Virus record (IMG/VR): IMGVR_UViG_3300034375_009562
Location: 1 to 58,908 of that record
From: a virus
Taxonomy: Duplodnaviria > Caudoviricetes
Reading direction: 5' to 3' (one strand)
Length of the DNA: 58,908 nucleotides
The notes beneath the pieces were generated by a model. It did no database searches. It was given only the letters and a program-made list of their open reading frames with translations, and was not told where the DNA came from. Each line of letters starts with the position of its first letter. The first letter of the stretch is position 1. The position numbers and the translations under genes were made by a program. This document shows, in pieces, positions 411 to 45,304 of the stretch.

Positions 411-1418
411 TTATTTAAGAGCAGCACTCATCATTTCATCTACTAGGTTATCAAAGGAGTATTCTGGTTTCCATCCTAGCTTTGTTCTTGCTTTTGTTGA
501 ATCGCCAAGTAGCAACTCTACCTCTGCTGGGCGATAAAATTCTGGATTGATACGAACTATTTCTGCCCCATTTTGACTAATACCGATCTCGTGTATACCT
601 TCGCCTACCCAAGTAATATTATAACCAATATAAGAGAAAGCACGCTCTACAAATTCCCGCACAGAGTGCAACTCGCCTGTGGCGAGTACATAATCATCTG
701 GTTCATCTGCTTGAACCATTTGATACATGCCACGAACATAGTCTTTGGCATGACCCCAATCTCTCTGAGCATCTAGATTGCCTAGTTCTAAGCAGTCCAA
801 ACGATCAGCATCAATATCTACTACACCACGGCAAATCTTTTGTGTTACAAACTCACGACCTCGCCAAGGAGATTCATGATTAAAAAGTATGCCATTTGAA
901 CCGTGTAGTCCATATGATTCACGATAATTACGCACAATCCAGTAAGAGTACAGTTTTGCAACTCCATACGGAGATCGAGGATAAAAAGGTGTTGATTCTG
1001 TTTGTGGCGTTTCCTGAACTAGACCATATAGTTCTGAGGTGCTTGCTTGATAAAATCGTGTATGTTTTGTCATTCCAAGTGAGCGAATACATTCAAGTAG
1101 TCTAACAGTACCGAGTGCATCTACATCAGCTGTATATTCTGGAATATCAAAAGATACACGAACATGACTTTGAGCAGCAAGGTTGTATACCTCATCAAAC
1201 TCATACTGTTGAAATAGTTTCATTAAACAGCCAGTATCTGTTAAATCTCCATAGTGAAGATGAAAGTTTGGATTATACTGAATATGAGCAATGCGGTGCA
1301 TAAAATCTGCCGCAGTGCGTCTTTTAATAGAGTGAACTTCGTAACCAGCATCAAGTAGTAGTTCTGCAAGATAGCCACCATCTTGACCAGTTACCCCAGT
1401 AACAAATGCGCGTTTCAT
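411..1418 (-). CDS. gmd: GDP-mannose 4,6-dehydratase
   Basis: [56 protein letters not shown] motifs. Confidence 0.97.
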
Positions 1419-9233: not shown

Positions 9234-11054
9234 TTAAGCAACTTCTTGCTCGTCTACTATATCAGCATCAGGATTTCTTGCATACATACGAGATCCTACT
9301 TTCATCTGAGCATCTTGAAGTTCATTGAGTAGATTTTCAAGAGCATCTGTATCTGCCTCATTGATTTTTTCAATCAAAGATTCGATTTCAATTCGTTCTT
9401 CATCAGTGATTTCTTCTGAGAACTCTTTCAGCATAGATTGTGCAGAGTGAACTGCTGATTCAGCCGCATTGCGTAAGTCGACTTCGCGACGACGTGCTGC
9501 ATCAGCTTCTTTATTTGCTTCTGCCTCATCTATCATACGATCAATCTCTGCATCGCTCAATCCCCCATCTGACTTAATAGAGATCTTTTGTTCTTTGCCA
9601 GTTGCCTGATCTCGCGCACTAACATTAACAATACCGTTTGCATCAATATCAAAGGTTACTTCAATCTGTGGAACGCCTTTCGGTGCAGGAGCAATTCCTG
9701 ATAACATAAACTCTCCAAGTAGTTTATTATCTGCTACCATTTCTCGCTCACCTTGATACACTTTAATACTCACCGCTGGTTGATTGTCAGCAGCCGTAGA
9801 GAATGTCTGAGATTTTTTAGTTGGAATTGTAGTATTACGATCAATAATACGAGTCATTACACCACCAAGTGTCTCAAGACCTAATGATAGAGGTGTTACG
9901 TCTAATAAAACTACATCGTCTACGTCTCCGCTAAGTACTCCAGCTTGAATTGCTGCTCCAATGGAAACTACTTCATCAGGATTAACACCTTTATTTGGTA
10001 CAGTTTTAAAGTAAGCTTCAACAATCTCTGCAACCTTCGGCATACGAGTCATTCCACCTACAAGTACAACCTCATCTACCTTATTAAGGTTAGCATCTTT
10101 CATTGCTCTTTTACAAGCCTCAATACTCTTATCAAGTAGATCTTGTACTAAAGATTCAAACTTAGCACGAGTAATTTTAACCTGAAGATGTTTTGGACCA
10201 GAAGCATCTGCTGTAACAAAAGGAAGATTTACTTCAGTTTGTGTGGTGGAAGACAATTCGATTTTAGCTTTTTCAGCCGCTTCTCTTACTCTTTGAAGTG
10301 CTAGGTTATCTTTTCTGAGATCAATTGATTCGTTTTTCATAAACTCATCTGCAATGTAGTCTATCAAACGATTATCGAAGTCTTCACCCCCTAAATATGT
10401 GTCTCCATTTGTGGAAAGCACTTCAATGATACCATCTCCGATGTCTAATATAGAAACGTCGAATGTGCCTCCACCTAAGTCATAAACTGCAATTGTACTG
10501 CTGTCATTTTTATCTAGTCCATATGCAAGTGCCGCTGCAGTAGGCTCGTTAATAATACGAAGTACTTCAAGACCTGCAATTTTTCCTGCGTCTTTAGTTG
10601 CTTGACGTTGGGCATCATTAAAGTATGCAGGTACAGTAATAACCGCTTTATCAACTGACTGCCCTAAATATGCTTCTGCGTCTGTTTTAAGTTTTTGTAA
10701 AATTTTTGAAGAGATTTGAGATGGTGAGTATTCTACGTCTAGTGCTTTTACCCAGGCATCTCCATTTCTTGATTTAATAATACTATATGAAACTGATTCT
10801 CTAACGCTTTTTGCTGTGTCGCTGTCATACCTAACGCCCATCAGTCTTTTAACTGCATGAATTGTATTTTCTGCATTAGTAACTGCTTGACGCTTTGCTG
10901 AAGCGCCAACAACTTCTTCATCCGCGCTAAAAGAAATAATAGATGGAGTAGTTCTAGCTCCCTCTGCATTTTCAATAATCTTTGCACTCCCGTTTTCAAA
11001 TACCGAAACACAAGAGTTTGTTGTACCTAAATCAATACCAATTGTTTTACTCAT
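9234..11054 (-). CDS. dnaK: molecular chaperone DnaK (Hsp70)
   Basis: [58 protein letters not shown]. Confidence 0.98.
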
Positions 11055-11208
11055 AATTTATTCTCCAATGCACATAACCGTGCCAAAGTAAATAGTTTAT
11101 AAAAATACCTAAAGCATCCCCAAAGGCAATGCTTATAGTACTTGTGTAGGCTATATAAGCTATCACTACATAGTCGTACCATTCAAGGCTAGTCCCAGAG
11201 TGATTCAT
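11047..11208 (-). CDS. small membrane protein (start uncertain)
   Basis: hydrophobic C-terminal part of ORF 11047-11301, overlaps dnaK start. Confidence 0.4.
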
Positions 11209-11650
11209 AATGTTTACCAAATAGTGCGAAACCTTCATCCATTCGTGCTTGATGAGCATTTCTTGCATCCCGATCAATGATATGCTCTTTAGACCAGACA
11301 AGAGTTTTGTTGCCTTCTGAGTCTACTTCTCCCGCATCCCAGTCTATCTCACCTTCTTGAAGCACATACTGTTGTTCCCAATCAATTAGTTTTTGCTCAA
11401 ATGACCAGATCATTTTATCTAAAATCTCATCCCATTGTTCTTCAGACATAGTACTAGGATAACTATGAGTTGATGCTTTAAGTTGTTTTAGCATAGGAAC
11501 AATAATTTCAGCAAGGGTAAGATCCATACTCCAAGTATCCCAAGGGTCTATATGTACCTTTCTTTTTTGTTCTGGAAGATAATCAAAAAGTTTATATAAC
11601 CAGTTGTGATAAAATCTGTAAGTAGGATAATTGCTAATATATACTTTCAT
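11189..11650 (-). CDS. conserved phage hypothetical protein
   Basis: DPWDTWSMDLTLA...PMLKQLK...[14 protein letters not shown]; promoter TTGACA-17-TAAAAT at 11660-11688. Confidence 0.75.
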   Translation of the reverse strand: MKVYISNYPTYRFYHNWLYKLFDYLPEQKRKVHIDPWDTWSMDLTLAEIIVPMLKQLKASTHSYPSTMSEEQWDEILDKMIWSFEQKLIDWEQQYVLQEGEIDWDAGEVDSEGNKTLVWSKEHIIDRDARNAHQARMDEGFALFGKHYESLWD

Positions 11651-11690
11651 AGTGAACTCATTTTATTAAAATTTTAAGCATTTGTCAAAC

Positions 11691-11720
11691 AAAAAGCACG
11701 CCCAGTTTCCTGAGCGTGCT
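11691..11720 (-). terminator. intrinsic terminator closing the large ncRNA unit
   Basis: AGCACGCTCAG-GAAA-CTGGGCGTGCT followed by TTTT. Confidence 0.85.
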
Positions 11721-12009
11721 AGTTTGTGATTGCCCCTCCCGACAGGGGACTTACCAACTCGCTCACAAACAAACGAGACTAAACATCAATTTTCGGGCAG
11801 GATGAGTTTAGTACATCCCCGACAAGTTTTGGGTTAACTGGTACTTATCAAACCAGCCCCTCATCTACGAACATTTAGTTGTAGTGAAGGAAAACTAGGG
11901 TAGTCGCCACCAACCTCGCCAACTACCGTGCGGCAGGATACACCCTGTTGTTCCGCCCCGACTCTCAGTTTTAGGCCGATTTAACATGCCATGCCCCTGA
12001 GACAAGGGA

Positions 12010-12088
12010 CTACTTGAAGAGAGAGGTTTGCACTCCATTTCCGAGTTCATAAGTCTCAGGTCTTGCTAATTAGACGATCTTCAAGCAG
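12010..12088 (-). other. tRNA-like cloverleaf lacking CCA, embedded in ncRNA
   Basis: 11-bp stem CTGCTTGAAGA/TCTTCAAGTAG, D arm GTCT/AGAC, anticodon-like loop CTTATGA, T-loop TGCAAAC. Confidence 0.6.
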
Positions 12089-12728
12089 CAAGTGAGTGGC
12101 GCTTGTAAAACTAGTAATAACTGCTTACCACTCTAAATTGGGCAGAGCCTGTAAATAAACACAGGTTGCACCTTCCTCTATTCGCCCATAGTGGCATGGT
12201 GTAGAGGTTTCACCATATAGTGAAGTGATGAGAATATTTTTTACTCACAAGCGACTAGTCAGTATCTCGTATACCATTCGCCACAACAACCTGTTAGCTA
12301 GTTGAGCAGGAGCACTACTCCCCAGGTCTACTTTTTCCCGCTGACACAGGAATATTCAGTCACACTTCGATGTGGGAGCTACCCACACAAGAAACTGGGG
12401 GGAGAACTTTTAGGTCGCTCCCCTGCCCCTCACAGAGCCGACCGCGTTGATGTAGGTAACTGCAAAACCTGTCCAAGACGGCGATATTTTATGAGCAAGC
12501 TCAAGGACTGCGGCTCAGGTCTCGTATCGCTCGTGCCTAGCGTCACGGTAACGGCGGGAACCCGATGAGTTCTTCTTTTATGTCGCGCTCATTACGACAA
12601 GAGAGACAGGCTGAGACCGATTCCGTGACTCCGTTGCATCATTAACTGGTTTTACCTTGTGCTGTTAGTGTCCCGAAGGAGACTGTGTAGCCCAGAGGAT
12701 GATGCCTACTCTCTCATTCAATAAATAT

Positions 12729-12757
12729 ATTATATAAAAATTTTAAGTTCTTAGCAA
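12729..12757 (-). promoter_or_regulatory. sigma70-type promoter for ncRNA unit 1
   Basis: TTGCTA-17nt-TATAAT. Confidence 0.8.
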
Positions 12758-12769
12758 CATTAAAATCAA

Positions 12770-13091
12770 AGGGGAGACTGCTTTCTGTACTAGCGAAGAT
12801 TAATTTTACAGTGCCTAGTGAACTACCTTTGTAATACACATCTTTGGCGGATCTTGCTTTCCTTACTTACAGGACTCCCCATGAAATTTTGCGGATGGTT
12901 TTTTTAAGTTGGTTATCCATTCCTCAACAACAGAATAAGGGCTGATCACGACACCAAATCTGGTAATTGTCTATCAGCTCTCTCTGAGGTTCAGAGAGCA
13001 TTTCCTTCTAGTGAAAACTAGAGTGCTATAGTAGGTGCTATTTTTGTCCGAATCTTATTCAGCGACTTAGGCATAACTGCCTTCTCATTAT
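12770..13091 (-). ncRNA. candidate ~320 nt structured ncRNA unit 2
   Basis: GAATAAG/CTTATTC multibranch, GTTG/CAAC pseudoknot, GGGGAG/CTCCCC-closed ~120 nt domain; promoter at 13098-13126. Confidence 0.65.
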
Positions 13092-13097
13092 TTTAAT

Positions 13098-13126
13098 ATT
13101 ATAAATAAAAATTTAGAGTTAGCCAA
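13098..13126 (-). promoter_or_regulatory. sigma70-type promoter for ncRNA unit 2
   Basis: TTGGCT-17nt-TATAAT. Confidence 0.7.
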
Positions 13127-13168
13127 TCAAATTTTTGAAAATTTTAAAGTAAGCCTATTACTCTAAGG

Positions 13169-13357
13169 TCATTTTTTTAGTTTTTCGCTTAACCAGATAA
13201 ACGGAAAGATAACAACAAATATAGGCAACACAATAGCCCATAAAAGTAAGTCACTTACAGTTGATTCTTGTTCTTCGTGTTTTCCGTTTCCTGATGCAGC
13301 TCTTGTCCAATATACCCCACTATTGTGGTTCTTCGGTTTTAGTCCTGCTTGTCTCAT
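13169..13357 (-). CDS. small membrane protein
   Basis: C-terminal TM; coupled to upstream ORF. Confidence 0.55.
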   Translation of the reverse strand: MRQAGLKPKNHNSGVYWTRAASGNGKHEEQESTVSDLLLWAIVLPIFVVIFPFIWLSEKLKK

Positions 13358-13686
13358 CTATCATTCCAAAATTCATCGAAGTATTCAGCATAGAGTTTTA
13401 GAGATGCTCTAAGATTCTCTCTATCATAGACTTCTGCTTCGTCACTTTCATAAAAGTCTGTGAACAAGTATCTATCCAAATCGTCAATGATTTGAGCAAC
13501 TAAAATATCCCAATTTTCTTGAGAAGTAAAATCATTCGGGAATGTGTCACATACTTTTTGATACTCTACAAGAGACCTGTACATCACATTAAGAATGATT
13601 TTATCAGCGTAAAAACCATCTTCTCGTTCAGTAAAAATGTCTATTCGTTCACAGTCAGTGTCTAACGAAGTCAGATTAGCTAACAT
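13354..13686 (-). CDS. acidic hypothetical protein
   Basis: 110 aa coupled ORF. Confidence 0.6.
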   Translation of the reverse strand: MLANLTSLDTDCERIDIFTEREDGFYADKIILNVMYRSLVEYQKVCDTFPNDFTSQENWDILVAQIIDDLDRYLFTDFYESDEAEVYDRENLRASLKLYAEYFDEFWNDR

Positions 13687-14056: not shown

Positions 14057-14150
14057 TGGTAGGCCAGTCTGGATTCGAACCAGAATCGCTCTCTAATCTG
14101 GAGACTGTGCCGCGTATAAGGCGGGTGTTTTACCATTAAACTACTGGCCT
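14057..14150 (-). tRNA. tRNA-Ile(UAU)-like with 24-nt extra arm
   Basis: AGGCCAG/CTGGCCT-A-CCA acceptor, anticodon loop CTTATAC, T arm TCTGG-TTCGAAT-CCAGA; 94 nt. Confidence 0.8.
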
Positions 14151-14152
14151 AT

Positions 14153-14229
14153 TGGTACTCCCGGAGGGACTCGAACCCCCAACAACACCGTTATGAGCGG
14201 TGGGTTCTAACCAATTGAACTACAGGAGT
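14153..14229 (-). tRNA. tRNA-CAU (elongator Met or lysidine Ile2)
   Basis: cloverleaf, CACCG-CTCATAA-CGGTG, encoded CCA. Confidence 0.9.
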
Positions 14230-14508
14230 AAATATTCGAGTTATCCAAGATTTTTTAGGACTCGATTGATACTTATGTATAAATTCTGGCGAGTAGTCTT
14301 GTGTTAAATAGTATGCTAAAGCAGCTTTAGCAATAGCTGTTTCGACTAGATTAACTTGAGAATCAGTATAGGCTTTCATTTTAAGCAAATCGTTTTCAGT
14401 AAGTTCTTTACCCCAATGGTCAATTAATGTTTTTGCTATAGCTTCTAGCTCAAGTTGCTTTTCAAAAGCATCAATTTCTAGATCTGCCCAAAAATCATTT
14501 CCCATCAT
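14191..14508 (-). CDS. hypothetical protein; 3' end overlaps tRNA-CAU
   Basis: 105 aa; GGAG SD; stop lies in the anticodon loop. Confidence 0.55.
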   Translation of the reverse strand: MMGNDFWADLEIDAFEKQLELEAIAKTLIDHWGKELTENDLLKMKAYTDSQVNLVETAIAKAALAYYLTQDYSPEFIHKYQSSPKKSWITRIFTPVVQLVRTHRS

Positions 14509-14680
14509 CTGTTGTATCTCCCATTCTGAAAAAGTATTTTTTCATTGCAATAGCTAAGTCATCCCCTTCGATATATACCCTGCTTGAAGGTATGCCTTCT
14601 TGAAATAAAGTAGCAAAAAGTTTACCATTATCAATAGCAAACTCTATTTCAATATTTGTCCCTTCAAATCTGTATTTCAT
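14495..14680 (-). CDS. hypothetical protein
   Basis: GAGG SD, 61 aa. Confidence 0.6.
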   Translation of the reverse strand: MKYRFEGTNIEIEFAIDNGKLFATLFQEGIPSSRVYIEGDDLAIAMKKYFFRMGDTTDDGK

Positions 14681-14694
14681 GCTATCCTCATGTT

Positions 14695-14780
14695 TGGTAC
14701 GGACGGCGAGACTCGAACTCGCACGACTTAAAGTCTCAGGATTTTAAGTCCTGTGTGTCTACCTATTCCACCACGCCCGC
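14695..14780 (-). tRNA. tRNA-Leu(UAA)
   Basis: CAGGA-CTTAAAA-TCCTG, long variable arm, CCA. Confidence 0.95.
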
Positions 14781-14786
14781 ATATAA

Positions 14787-15011
14787 TTAATCTTTTTCTG
14801 TTAATTCTTTAATACGAGCATAAGCAGCATATCGCGCTTCTGTTTCTTCTTTTAGTTGATGTTTTAGTAGTTCAATTTCGTTACTCAGTTGTATTACCAT
14901 TTTTCGATAGTATTCAGCTTCTTTGTCAGTCTGGTCGACTGCTTCTTGCTTTTGTAGCACAGGTTTTTTTAAAGGTATGCCAAAAGAATATTCCATAGTA
15001 ATTAACCTCAT
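14787..15011 (-). CDS. coiled-coil hypothetical protein
   Basis: 74 aa; promoter TTTACA-17-TATTAT at 15028-15056. Confidence 0.6.
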   Translation of the reverse strand: MRLITMEYSFGIPLKKPVLQKQEAVDQTDKEAEYYRKMVIQLSNEIELLKHQLKEETEARYAAYARIKELTEKD

Positions 15012-15064
15012 TTCATTTTATATTTATATAATATAATAAATTTAAGTAGCTGTAAAGTATAAAT

Positions 15065-15139
15065 TGGCACAGGTGCGAGGATTTGAACCCCGACTTCCGG
15101 TTTTGGAGACCGTCGTGCTACCATTGACACTACACCCAT
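15065..15139 (-). tRNA. tRNA-Trp(CCA)
   Basis: anticodon loop CTCCAAA, G73, CCA. Confidence 0.92.
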
Positions 15140-15140
15140 A

Positions 15141-15230
15141 TGGCGGAGAGACAGGGATTCGAACCCTGGAAGGGCTTGCACCCTTGCTGGTTTTCAAGAC
15201 CAGTGCCTTCAACCACTCAGCCATCTCTCC
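15141..15230 (-). tRNA. tRNA-Ser(UGA)
   Basis: CTGGT-CTTGAAA-ACCAG, long variable arm, GCCA. Confidence 0.96.
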
Positions 15231-15233
15231 ATT

Positions 15234-15310
<77 letters not shown>

Positions 15311-15318
15311 AAGTGTTA

Positions 15319-15822
15319 TTACTTTTGTGCAACACAATAAAATGCGTGGTTCAAATCATATCCTTGAGAAACAAAACTTTTAGACCAAAGATTATCCATA
15401 TCTTCAAAGTAGTATTCCATCAAATTAGGAGTCAATGCGTGAATATGCTTTCTGTTATGCCAAGGACGCCAATATTTTTGATCAAAATGAGGTAGATATA
15501 GAAATAAAATACCACCTGGTTTTAGTTTAGAATTCCAGTACTCAAGTGCTTCTACATAGTTAGGTAGATGTTCTAAGCAGTGAGAAGAGAAAATATAATC
15601 TACTAAAGGAGGCACATCAGGAAGGTTATAAGCATCCCAAGGATCGTCAAAATCTAAATCAATTGGGATAGCTCCAGGATACGCCCATTCTTTTTTCATA
15701 CATCCAATATCAAACCCAATTCCTGAGAGTATTTCTTGAGCAAAAGGAATAGCATACTTAGACGCATGACCTTTTGTTTGGAGTATAGGATATTCCTCTC
15801 CTTTAAATTCAATTGTTTCCAT
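15319..15822 (-). CDS. SAM-dependent methyltransferase (type 11-like)
   Basis: GFDIGC, DYIFSSHCLEH, LKPGGILFLYLP. Confidence 0.85.
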   Translation of the reverse strand: METIEFKGEEYPILQTKGHASKYAIPFAQEILSGIGFDIGCMKKEWAYPGAIPIDLDFDDPWDAYNLPDVPPLVDYIFSSHCLEHLPNYVEALEYWNSKLKPGGILFLYLPHFDQKYWRPWHNRKHIHALTPNLMEYYFEDMDNLWSKSFVSQGYDLNHAFYCVAQK

Positions 15823-15957
15823 TTTGTAGTAACCTATCTATTTTCTTTTCAATACTTTGAAGAGTAGTTTCAATATCTTTTATAAGATCTTTTACATCTT
15901 TTGGCTCTTTTGTCTCTTCTCGTAACCTTCTAAGCATATAAGCCTCATAAGACTCTC

Positions 15958-16263
15958 TCATCTTAGTCTCCTGTAATGAGTTAATTCATACATTCGCTTA
16001 AATGATTTTGCTTCTGAAGAAGAAAAAAACCTAAACCAAACAGTATTTCCAAAACCATACTGCCACTGTGTCCAGTCCCACATATACTCACAATTATCTA
16101 AACACCATTGTTTTAGTACTTTAAATTCGGCACTATCATATGTGAACTTTGTTTTAAAAAATTCAATAGAATCTCCTTGAATACCTTTATTAAAAGATTC
16201 AAATTTCTTATTTTCTTTACAAAACTCATATGCTTTTTGATCGGACCAATTCTTCTTTATCAT
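15958..16263 (-). CDS. hypothetical protein
   Basis: 101 aa ORF. Confidence 0.55.
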   Translation of the reverse strand: MIKKNWSDQKAYEFCKENKKFESFNKGIQGDSIEFFKTKFTYDSAEFKVLKQWCLDNCEYMWDWTQWQYGFGNTVWFRFFSSSEAKSFKRMYELTHYRRLR

Positions 16264-16355
16264 ATTTTTCTTTTACCTTTGTATAAATTCTTTTAGCAGT
16301 AGTCTTATTACCATAAAAAAGAACAACATTATTTACATAGATAATACAACGCATA

Positions 16356-16592
16356 TTATCTATCTCTTGCATCTTCAATATGGGTTTCTGATTTCCAGAC
16401 AATTTGGCCCTCTAAAACATATTCTACTGCGTGGATGTAATCTTTTTCTTCATCATTTAATATATTCCAAAATTTAGTAATAGAATAAAGATGTTCTCTG
16501 ACAACTTCAGGTCTATTAAGATGATAATTATGATTCATCCAGTTCTCAAGTATATCTAGTCTTTGATTAATTTTTTGCTTTAAGTCTGTCAT
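16356..16592 (-). CDS. hypothetical protein (start MTDLKQK, immediately after tRNA-Glu)
   Basis: ORF track start lies within the tRNA; next ATG at 16592. Confidence 0.6.
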   Translation of the reverse strand: MTDLKQKINQRLDILENWMNHNYHLNRPEVVREHLYSITKFWNILNDEEKDYIHAVEYVLEGQIVWKSETHIEDARDR

Positions 16593-16593
16593 A

Positions 16594-16669
16594 TGGTACA
16601 CCCTACGGGATTCGAACCCGTGTTGCCGCCGTGAAAGGGCGATGTCCTAAACCACTAGACGAAGGGTGC
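16594..16669 (-). tRNA. tRNA-Glu(UUC)
   Basis: anticodon loop CTTTCAC, CCA. Confidence 0.95.
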
Positions 16670-16670
16670 T

Positions 16671-16744
16671 TGGAGCGGCATATCGGATTCGAACCGATGA
16701 CAAGAGCTTGGAAGGCTCGCATGTTACCACTACACCAATGCCGC
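16671..16744 (-). tRNA. tRNA-Gly(UCC)
   Basis: anticodon loop CTTCCAA, U73, CCA. Confidence 0.95.
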
Positions 16745-16750
16745 GTCATA

Positions 16751-16972
16751 TTAAAGATACTCTTCAACAATTTCTAACTTATCTTTGTAGTCTGCCATTT
16801 CAGCAATTTCTTTTTCAATTTCATCCATAATGTCGCCATGCTCTCCAATCCCAGCTGGATTCTCTAGCAAGTTTTCAACATTAATTAGATGTTTTTCAAT
16901 ATGTGCTTCAAAGTGAAGACGAAGTGCTTCTTTGATGCGTTCTTGCATACTAATATGTGATCGTTGTTTCAT
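16751..16972 (-). CDS. conserved marine phage hypothetical protein
   Basis: NVENLLENPAGIGEHGDIMDEIEKE motif; GAGG SD. Confidence 0.7.
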   Translation of the reverse strand: MKQRSHISMQERIKEALRLHFEAHIEKHLINVENLLENPAGIGEHGDIMDEIEKEIAEMADYKDKLEIVEEYL

Positions 16973-16990
16973 TTTACCCTCATTAAAGTT

Positions 16991-17089
16991 GATGTGGGCT
17001 AACCGTTGACCCACACGCGTGTATTAAGGCACGACCCTACCCAGGTGGCACCATCTGCTTAGTTATTTTACAAGAGAAGCAGAACTCTT
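16991..17089 (-). ncRNA. candidate ~100 nt structured RNA between tRNA-Leu(UAG) and next gene
   Basis: pseudoknot AAGAG/CTCTT + TCTGCTT/AAGCAGA; terminal hairpin TGTGGG/CCCACA. Confidence 0.5.
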
Positions 17090-17093
17090 AAAC

Positions 17094-17178
17094 TGGTGCC
17101 CATGGAGGGAGTCGAACCCCCACGCCGTAAAGCACAGGTACCTAAAACCTGCGTGTCTACCAATTCCACCACATGGGC
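17094..17178 (-). tRNA. tRNA-Leu(UAG)
   Basis: CAGGT-TTTAGGT-ACCTG, long variable arm, CCA. Confidence 0.94.
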
Positions 17179-17181
17179 TTG

Positions 17182-17257
17182 TGGCTCCGACTGCAGGACT
17201 CGAACCTGCGACAGGGTGATTAACAGTCACCTGCTCTACCAACTGAGCTAAGTCGGA
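17182..17257 (-). tRNA. tRNA-Asn(GUU)
   Basis: GGTGA-CTGTTAA-TCACC, GCCA. Confidence 0.96.
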
Positions 17258-17260
17258 ATA

Positions 17261-17336
17261 TGGTGCTGAGTGGAGGACTTGAACCCCCAGCCTCTGGAGT
17301 ACAAAACCAGTGCTCTACCAGTTGAGCTAACTCAGC
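17261..17336 (-). tRNA. tRNA-Thr(UGU)
   Basis: anticodon loop TTTGTAC, G1-C72/C2-G71, CCA; promoter TTGCTT-17-TAATAT at 17352-17380. Confidence 0.92.
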
Positions 17337-44856: not shown

Positions 44857-44863
44857 TTTTTGC

Positions 44864-44892
44864 TTGCTAAGTACTAAATTTTTTGTTAAATT
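44864..44892 (+). promoter_or_regulatory. promoter for tmRNA gene
   Basis: TTGCTA-17nt-TAAATT. Confidence 0.7.
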
Positions 44893-44898
44893 ATATTC

Positions 44899-45277
44899 AA
44901 TAGCTTCGTTGAAGCAAGTCAAACACTAGACTGGACGCGGGGGCAGTACCCGCCGCCTCCACCATAAACACACGATGAAGTATTGCAAAAACTGTAAACA
45001 TTATTGGACAAAAGGCACTAAAGGTAAATGGTGCTGTAAGTTTGGTAAAAAATGCGAAAAAGCAATGGGACATTGTAAACTAAATAATGGTCGTGTGTTT
45101 ATGATGGGGGCGAACTAGGATCGACAGGTGGTTAATAGATAAGTGGAGAAGCAGGTGCGCAAGCGACCTTAACCGCAAGATTAAAACATCCGCAAACGAT
45201 AACTTTGCAATCGAGGACATCCGCTTAGCGGCATAGTCTCATGGGGTATGGTTCCACCTAGCAACAGAACGGGCCGA
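44899..45277 (+). ncRNA. ssrA: circularly permuted two-piece tmRNA (acceptor piece to 44964; intervening 44965-45105; coding piece from 45106)
   Basis: GGACGCGGGGGCAGTACCCGCCGCCTCCACCA precedes GGGGGCGAACTAGGATCGAC; G3-U70 pair; tag ORF 45192-45236 = ANDNFAIEDIRLAA*. Confidence 0.95.
44975..45118 (+). CDS. candidate 47-aa Cys/Lys-rich peptide inside tmRNA intervening segment
   Basis: MKYCKNCKHYWTKGTKGKWCCKFGKKCEKAMGHCKLNNGRVFMMGAN*; no SD. Confidence 0.45.
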   Translation: MKYCKNCKHYWTKGTKGKWCCKFGKKCEKAMGHCKLNNGRVFMMGAN

Positions 45278-45304
45278 TTTTTTATAATAAAAGTGAGTAA
45301 AATA

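Follow-up and report, generated by a model that had tools for sequence, protein, structure and literature searches.

What is encoded in the roughly 1 kb between positions 11691 and 12722 of the virus contig IMGVR_UViG_3300034375_009562 that contains hardly any open reading frame (ORF) on the minus strand? The window analysed here is this whole IMG/VR contig of 58,908 bp, with an estimated completeness of ca. 51%. An earlier note, made from the sequence alone, proposed a single novel structured RNA of about 1 kb with its own promoter and terminator and also named a processed array of small RNAs as a possibility. We find a real, structured non-coding locus with a conserved promoter and terminator that is apparently highly expressed. 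The proposal of one novel RNA does not hold, as 170 nucleotides (nt) belong to the known manA RNA family and the remainder is a mosaic of modules found separately and reordered in relatives; an array fits better. Our favored interpretation, with a probability of about 0.6, is a non-coding RNA island in the transfer RNA (tRNA) region of a distant T5-like aquatic phage, organized as a co-transcribed modular array. Its features, from upstream to downstream along the minus strand, are as follows.

12762 to 12934, minus strand: module U, a structured RNA of its own located immediately 5' of the promoter, with 12946-13168 further upstream (profile, compensatory change)
12729 to 12757, minus strand: sigma-70-type promoter TTGCTA-17-TATAAT (consensus scan, 10 of 12 matches; conserved in relatives)
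12596 to 12722, minus strand: module A, a closed multi-helix domain with a tertiary pair that heads the transcript (covariation; no Rfam match)
12388 to 12595, minus strand: module B, a second conserved structured domain (covariation; no Rfam match)
12218 to 12387, minus strand: manA RNA, RF01745 (full model, Rfam 61.3 bits against a gathering score of 55.2)
12085 to 12217, minus strand: module D, hairpins AUGGUG..CACCAU, CCUGU..ACAGG and GAGUGG..CCACUC (partial homologues)
12013 to 12084, minus strand: degenerate tRNA-like element with the anticodon-loop triplet UAU (Rfam tRNA, RF00005, and ARAGORN at a relaxed threshold)
11888 to 12012, minus strand: module E, three covarying helices and the G-rich loop UGGCGAGGUUGGUGGCG (covariation; no Rfam match)
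11721 to 11887, minus strand: module F, a structured 3' segment (homologues in the relatives L314 and L308 only)
11688 to 11720, minus strand: intrinsic terminator with an 11-bp stem (11720-11695 in the stem scan), GAAA loop and U tract (scan and conservation)
11660 to 11688, minus strand: promoter-like site TTGACA-17-TAAAAT (scan, 11 of 12 matches), preceding the gene of a 153-amino acid (aa) protein and the Hsp70 gene

The folds predicted for modules A, B and E are supported by covariation among homologues, a check that the earlier note had suggested. Two exact-match scans with module A gave 6 and 9 loci and led to 8 IMG/VR contigs (L293, one of the 9, was dismissed as a chance match), and a gapped module A pattern identified 52 metagenome loci. 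The gapped pattern has no match in 185,579 prokaryote species genomes, and blastn finds no homologue of the module among 50,697 GenBank phage records. Including the window, the family comprises 61 sequences from virus and metagenome contigs, 46 of which are distinct versions. Pairing is observed in 97.3% of cells compared with 85.0% in shuffles (45 sequences), and the covariation score of 0.279 versus 0.075 is reached by none of 500 shuffles, with slid controls at or below 0.054. The outer helix, in which the 5' end of the transcript pairs with the 3' flank, covaries strongly, and duplexes between a sequence's own leader and trailer have a mean of -9.25 kcal/mol compared with -5.37 kcal/mol for cross pairs, a value that 0 of 1000 permutations reach. 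A loop-to-junction tertiary pair (G12637-C12619) is paired in every sequence, as GC in 31 and as CG in 14. The window copy carries the outer 5'-closing helix, the invariant core strands, the covarying 3' hairpin and the loop-junction tertiary pair. The helices GAGAGA..AGGC/GCCT..TCTCTC and GCATCAT/ATGATGC, picked out in the earlier note, are parts of module A, and relatives support them, as is the case for the other helices named there that are described below. In one contig lineage, represented by L327 and L345, module A is present twice, ca. 490 nt apart (0..130 and 487..599 relative to the first copy), and the first copy is without the usual promoter.

Module B contains 22 predicted pairs, 13 of them with compensatory change among 14 sequences, and its covariation score of 0.448 versus 0.150 is not reached by any of 500 shuffles. 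It directly follows module A in 19 of the 37 distinct loci with at least 340 nt of downstream sequence. The 3' end of module B is formed by a G-rich hairpin and a U-rich tail, which is terminator-like in many loci and weaker in the window. Modules A and B may constitute one RNA of ca. 330 nt that probably ends at the module B hairpin in most genomes. At L308:1302-1556 (minus strand) module B contains an insertion of ca. 51 nt resembling a tandem duplication of a GCAGTT-containing unit.

Module E contains 20 predicted pairs, of which 13 show compensatory change (12 sequences), with a covariation score of 0.539 versus 0.237 that again none of 500 shuffles reach. The previously named helices GGTAGT/ACTACC and GCGG/CCGC are parts of this module. 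Its loop UGGCGAGGUUGGUGGCG is nearly invariant and possesses four GG tracts; speculatively, it could form a two-layer G-quadruplex or pair to a CCA-type sequence. The module E profile matches 19 loci, and an independent pattern scan of IMG/VR yielded 8 loci, all of them profile-confirmed. The pattern has 7 matches in prokaryote genomes, all in high-GC genomes and none confirmed, and a blastn search of the GenBank phage records with module E returns only a 21-nt chance match. The terminal hairpin of the module (11899-11926, minus strand) precedes CUAGUUUUCC in the window, where the scan marked it as a terminator-like site; in other members no U tract follows, and the hairpin is probably not a terminator in general. 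Contigs assembled from RNA sequencing runs end near this hairpin, at 11908 and 11918.

The remaining modules have fewer relatives or stand apart from the transcript. Partial homologues of module D are present in L314, L308, L347 and L320, and 5 of its 15 predicted pairs show compensatory change (5 sequences, a small sample). Of the other helices named in the earlier note, GAGTGG/CCACTC is changed to GATGG/CCATC in L320, and GTTTGTGA/TCACAAAC becomes ACCTACGA/TCGTAGGT in L314. Module F is 77% identical in L314 and L308. By eye, the alignment with these two relatives contains the changes GUUUGUGA/UCACAAAC to ACCUACGA/UCGUAGGU and CCCC/GGGG to CCGC/GCGG, and RNAalifold predicts 70 pairs from the 3 sequences, 5 of them with compensatory change; a 17-mer of module F has 6 matches in IMG/VR, none confirmed. 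Module U is more widespread, its profile giving 48 matches in 39 loci, with compensatory change at 11 of 27 predicted pairs (16 sequences). Its position relative to module A varies, being immediately upstream in 5 of 43 loci and downstream in 15 of 29. The closing helix of module U runs into a U tract and its 5' end resembles, by eye, an H-type pseudoknot with an A-rich loop, which is absent from the formal pair count. A promoter-like site at 13126-13098 may drive this module.

Contigs from public sequencing runs indicate strong expression of the locus. The stretch is present in 20 public runs, 6 of which are metatranscriptomes, and we aligned contigs of three RNA runs (X15, X16, X17) and one DNA run (X13) to positions 10900-13500. 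Contigs of the three RNA runs have a word depth of 117-1380 over 11908-12700 compared with 0-7.4 over 11074-11856 and 12727-13500, while the depth of the DNA run is flat at ca. 6-9 over the RNA locus and its immediate flanks and reaches 26-93 in bins of the 153-aa gene. RNA-run contigs start at 12690-12700, just downstream of the promoter, with a depth of 2-3 above 12727, and depth over module U is 2-16. The contigs thus give good grounds to assume a transcript far above the neighboring messenger RNAs in abundance. The metatranscriptome comparison proposed earlier bears out abundance through contigs at high depth and consists of contig data only. A single RNA-run contig (12137-12700) spans modules A, B, manA and D, which suggests read-through past module B into manA and beyond in the window. 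Variants with different sequence below 12137 are found among the aligned contigs, and at 11908 a contig end borders on letters that resemble adapter sequence. No contig of the three RNA runs covers 11770-11856 in module F; this gap is evidence neither for a 3' end at module E nor for a silent module F.

The boundaries of the transcription unit are conserved. Both the TTGCTA-17-TATAAT promoter and the GAAA-capped terminator of the earlier note were recovered by scanning. In a 2.5-kb scan, 7 promoter-like sites were found versus 5.9 expected and 5 terminator-like sites versus 1.7 expected, which is near chance; the two elements are credible from their conservation in relatives and not from scan counts. 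The promoter aligns with a conserved TTGC-type -35 element plus -10 element directly upstream of module A in relatives, and in 33 of 45 homologues an automatic pick finds a TTGC-type -35 element with 17-nt spacing at a distance of 17-22 nt upstream of the module A core. Most of the others likewise possess a TTGC-type promoter, as judged by eye. Transcription would start near 12722. The terminator stem contains 11 pairs (7 G-C) and a 4-nt loop and is followed by TTTTTGTTT; L314 and L308 keep it with compensatory C-G to U-A changes and a retained U tract. The TTGACA of the next promoter-like site (11660-11688) is also conserved in L314 and L308, and this site divides the RNA unit from the 153-aa and Hsp70 genes that follow it.

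Part of the transcript belongs to a known family. A whole-window Rfam 15 scan aligns manA RNA over model positions 1-192 of 192 with an E value of 3.3e-13. The conserved GUGACUGAAUA junction is present and the pseudoknot strands AAGUG/CACUU are aligned, while most of one internal stem-loop of the model is missing. Score, full coverage, pseudoknot and the aquatic-phage setting fit membership of the family. Here, however, manA accounts for only 170 of ca. 1030 nt, is internal to a terminator-ended non-coding transcript and is accompanied by unrelated modules. The Rfam comparison called for in the earlier note therefore had a divided outcome: manA, overlooked at first reading, is not novel, and modules A, B, E and U have no counterpart among the Rfam 15 families and are uncatalogued there. 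No other Rfam 15 family matches 11500-13100 at E values up to 10 apart from the tRNA-like element discussed below; GOLLD, ROOL, RNase P RNA, 6S, signal recognition particle (SRP) RNA and transfer-messenger RNA (tmRNA) are thus without a match in this region, in line with the motifs of the first five having gone unrecognized in the earlier note. The wcaG and abiF RNAs are absent from the Rfam scans of the window.

These data bear on a possible cis-regulatory role of the locus as a leader (a riboswitch or thermosensor array, for example) of the 153-aa and Hsp70 genes. manA was originally proposed as an element of 5' untranslated regions, with chaperone genes listed downstream of manA RNAs in that work (Weinberg et al., 2010, PMC2864571), and the Hsp70 gene lies 1.2 kb downstream of manA in the window (12218 to the gene start at 11054). 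The window manA is not in a 5' untranslated region, as it is followed by ca. 525 nt of further non-coding RNA, then the strong conserved terminator and the separate TTGACA-17-TAAAAT promoter, and RNA-run contig depth drops ca. 100-fold across this boundary. Terminator, separate promoter and depth drop together make a cis-regulatory role very improbable. In addition, relatives of the 153-aa and Hsp70 proteins are without such an RNA upstream, and elsewhere the modules sit among tRNAs and not before these genes.

The tRNA-like element is found by the sensitive Rfam scan only (32.3 bits; gathering score, 29) and not by the whole-window gathering scan. ARAGORN overlooks it with default parameters and reports a tRNA-Ile(tat) under the relaxed threshold. 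Canonical tRNAs possess a T loop of the form UUCRANY and a GG in the D loop; the element, read by eye, has the T loop UGCAAAC and a D loop without GG and is non-canonical. A near-identical DNA contig of run X13 is without 12017-12076. The element shares its anticodon triplet with the tRNA-Ile(tat) gene at 14057-14150 (minus strand, ARAGORN) and the two sequences are not similar. That tRNA gene is 94 nt long, unusual for its isotype, which suggests an insertion.

Comparison of module-bearing loci supports independent exchange of modules between phage genomes. In a three-way alignment of the window with L314 and L308, its closest relatives, modules A, B, D, E and F and the terminator are conserved, while an unrelated short hairpin stands in for manA and unrelated sequence occupies the site of the tRNA-like element. 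L314 is 89% identical to the window across modules A and B. Module matches are co-oriented with module A in all 46 distinct loci, and their order and content vary. Module E lies before a manA-like RNA in L284 but after manA in L320 and the window; the manA-like matches in the module arrays of L284 and L320 score 40.5 and 50.3 bits, respectively. tRNA-Met and tRNA-Lys genes are interleaved with modules in L320, L330, L340 and L347, and modules A, E and U each occur without the others in some loci. An Rfam search of 26 module-bearing loci identifies tRNA and manA only.

Searches anchored elsewhere did not recover the array. Sampling covered 160 loci, half of them around relatives of the 153-aa protein and half around relatives of Hsp70 (80 each); they contain no blastn or nhmmer homologue of the RNA region, and 16 of them searched with Rfam contain no manA. 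Among the 15 nearest of these loci, 11 are without an ORF-free gap of at least 350 nt and none has a GC-rich gap at the syntenic place. A profile search finds the modules in neither the 160 protein-anchored loci nor 120 marine loci identified by a manA pattern, and the latter share nothing beyond manA with the window. The RNA region as a whole is likewise without a blastn match among the GenBank phage records.

A co-transcribed array of self-contained domains accounts for the data better than a single, globally folded RNA does. In a single ornate GOLLD-like RNA, the whole transcript of ca. 830-1030 nt would function together; its peripheral domains would be exchangeable, the tRNA-like element would be an insert within a linker, and the manA domain might mediate assembly into an RNA-only multimer. 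The RNA-run contig bridging modules A, B, manA and D, the single conserved promoter and single strong terminator, and the recurrence of the order manA-D-E in L320 all agree with such an RNA. GOLLD itself has a variable 5' region, occasional linker tRNAs, a phage tRNA-island setting and cages (10.1101/2024.12.08.627333), and manA RNAs are reported to form pentamer-based closed multimers, or cages, the only source being cryo-electron microscopy in a preprint (10.64898/2026.07.01.735769). Like GOLLD and ROOL, the locus is phage-encoded, lies beside a tRNA cluster and is apparently highly expressed. GOLLD and ROOL, however, are large RNAs of phages and prophages with single conserved architectures, whereas here the parts recur separately and shuffled. 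In the closest relatives manA and the tRNA-like element are missing and the other parts persist, the 3' end of module B resembles a terminator hairpin with a U tract in many loci, and no inter-module covariation was seen, though it was not searched for systematically. We consider a single giant RNA unlikely on this evidence. A more specific version, in which the ca. 830-nt transcript (A, B, manA, D, tRNA-like element and E) is a GOLLD-like giant modular RNA, manA drives an RNA-only cage or multimer and the other domains and the tRNA-like element are displayed on or enclosed in it, is somewhat more doubtful still.

For the co-transcribed array we propose the following mechanism. One strong promoter (12757-12729) would drive a non-coding transcript of ca. 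0.8-1.0 kb consisting of a string of self-folding modules (A, B, manA, D, tRNA-like element, E and F) and ending at the terminator (11720-11695). Each module would be a closed domain, with the module A outer helix locking the 5' end of the transcript. These closed ends would confer nuclease resistance and so allow the RNAs to accumulate. The tRNA-like elements and interleaved true tRNAs may serve as release sites for host RNase P and 3'-end enzymes. Once freed, the modules would act in trans as free RNA particles; manA would, by analogy with its family, form multimeric cages, and the other modules could be scaffolds or decoys for host translation, tRNA or defense factors.

Several points weigh against the array reading. 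The expression evidence consists of contigs rather than reads, and contig depth is not suited to ranking genes or to fixing RNA ends, strand, processing and true levels; high depth may also sum several strains that share modules. Modules A and B co-occur in about half of the loci, so that what are here called modules may in some cases be parts of a larger RNA. The structures of modules B and E were derived from the alignments used to test them, which flatters their scores, the two inner helices of module A are invariant since the search pattern fixed them and carry no evidential value, and covariation support for modules D and F comes from 3-5 sequences. The role of the freed modules in trans, as decoys or scaffolds, is an inference. 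Finally, folding energies of 150-nt windows, with z-scores of -3.3 to +1.5, do not go beyond those of shuffles. Pairing of almost all of the region, as stated earlier, is thus no more than any sequence of ca. 50% guanine-plus-cytosine (GC) content would give.

The unexceptional folding energy, together with a mosaic pattern indicative of frequent recombination, would also suit a DNA-level element such as an origin or recombination hot spot, or a decayed GC-rich coding sequence, in place of an RNA gene. The region does stand out in composition, as first noted, with a GC content of 0.43-0.53 compared with 0.30-0.40 in the flanks. It is also ORF-free in the sense originally meant, the longest minus-strand ORF within 11691-12722 being 51 aa; its extent had been placed too narrowly, as the full ORF-free stretch is 11651-13168 and includes module U as an extra upstream RNA gene. 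The longest ORF on either strand is an 88-aa plus-strand frame, which has no Pfam match and is not open in L308. With no conserved reading frame, a coding interpretation of the region was rejected. Compensatory changes in many helices of modules A, B, E and U, the Rfam manA match and the restriction of high-depth RNA-run contigs to the RNA stretch argue against a DNA-level element as well, and we regard this reading as disfavored and scarcely credible.

The co-transcribed array resides in a phage that appears to be a distant relative of T5, since its DNA polymerase is closest to those of T5-like phages of Enterobacter, Aeromonas, Salmonella and E. coli, at ca. 40% identity. Upstream of the RNA region, and on its strand, are eleven tRNA genes (14057-17336, ARAGORN), which would place the locus within the phage tRNA region; the parallel to T5 and the tRNA-cluster setting emphasized in the earlier note are apt. 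Phages T4 and T5 carry stable RNAs of unknown role in their tRNA gene regions. These RNAs resemble the present ones in being co-oriented with tRNA genes, in belonging to virulent phages and in having strong promoters, a likeness by description only. Elsewhere in the window, a permuted two-piece tmRNA of alphaproteobacterial type is located at 44860-45279 (plus strand; Rfam alpha_tmRNA 96.8 bits, tmRNA_permuted 95 bits) and is not reported by ARAGORN; it may point to an alphaproteobacterial host. The phage also encodes a full-length Hsp70/DnaK at 9234-11054 (minus strand; Pfam HSP70, 835 bits), relatives of which are widespread in IMG/VR contigs, with at least 584 confirmed stretches.

Individual aspects of the locus have precedents. 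manA is already known (PMC2864571), and clusters of small RNAs containing manA are known in cyanophage. The wcaG-manA-abiF cluster of cyanophage S-CREM1 contains several small structured RNAs within ca. 1 kb (PMC9964418, Table 4), and the present locus is alike in this respect. S-CREM1 is a T4-like cyanomyovirus whose manA has companions from Rfam families, whereas the window phage is T5-like and the companions are uncatalogued. Fremin et al., 2023 (PMC10690425) report 8,495 unnamed structured-RNA candidates of 29-151 nt mined from IMG/VR, a type of collection also drawn on here, and pieces of modules A, B, E or U may thus be among them. No description of the modules was found in the accessible portions of the literature on stable RNAs of the T5 tRNA region and on phage structured RNAs.

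The RNAs of phage tRNA clusters, such as GOLLD, ROOL and manA, are abundant, have recently been shown to build RNA-only cages and have no known function. To these the locus adds three well-supported uncatalogued folds (A, B and E) and a fourth upstream (U), all linked to manA and tRNA genes, and the modules seem to rank with the most abundant phage transcripts of natural freshwater metatranscriptomes. Should the GOLLD-like cage reading hold, at least four new RNA classes (A, B, E and U) would be united in one phage RNA machine, and this machine would act on host tRNA, translation or defense. Module A, with its invariant core and perfectly covarying tertiary pair, is a ready target for structure determination, and the shuffling of modules represents a natural "domain swap" data set on which parts work together.

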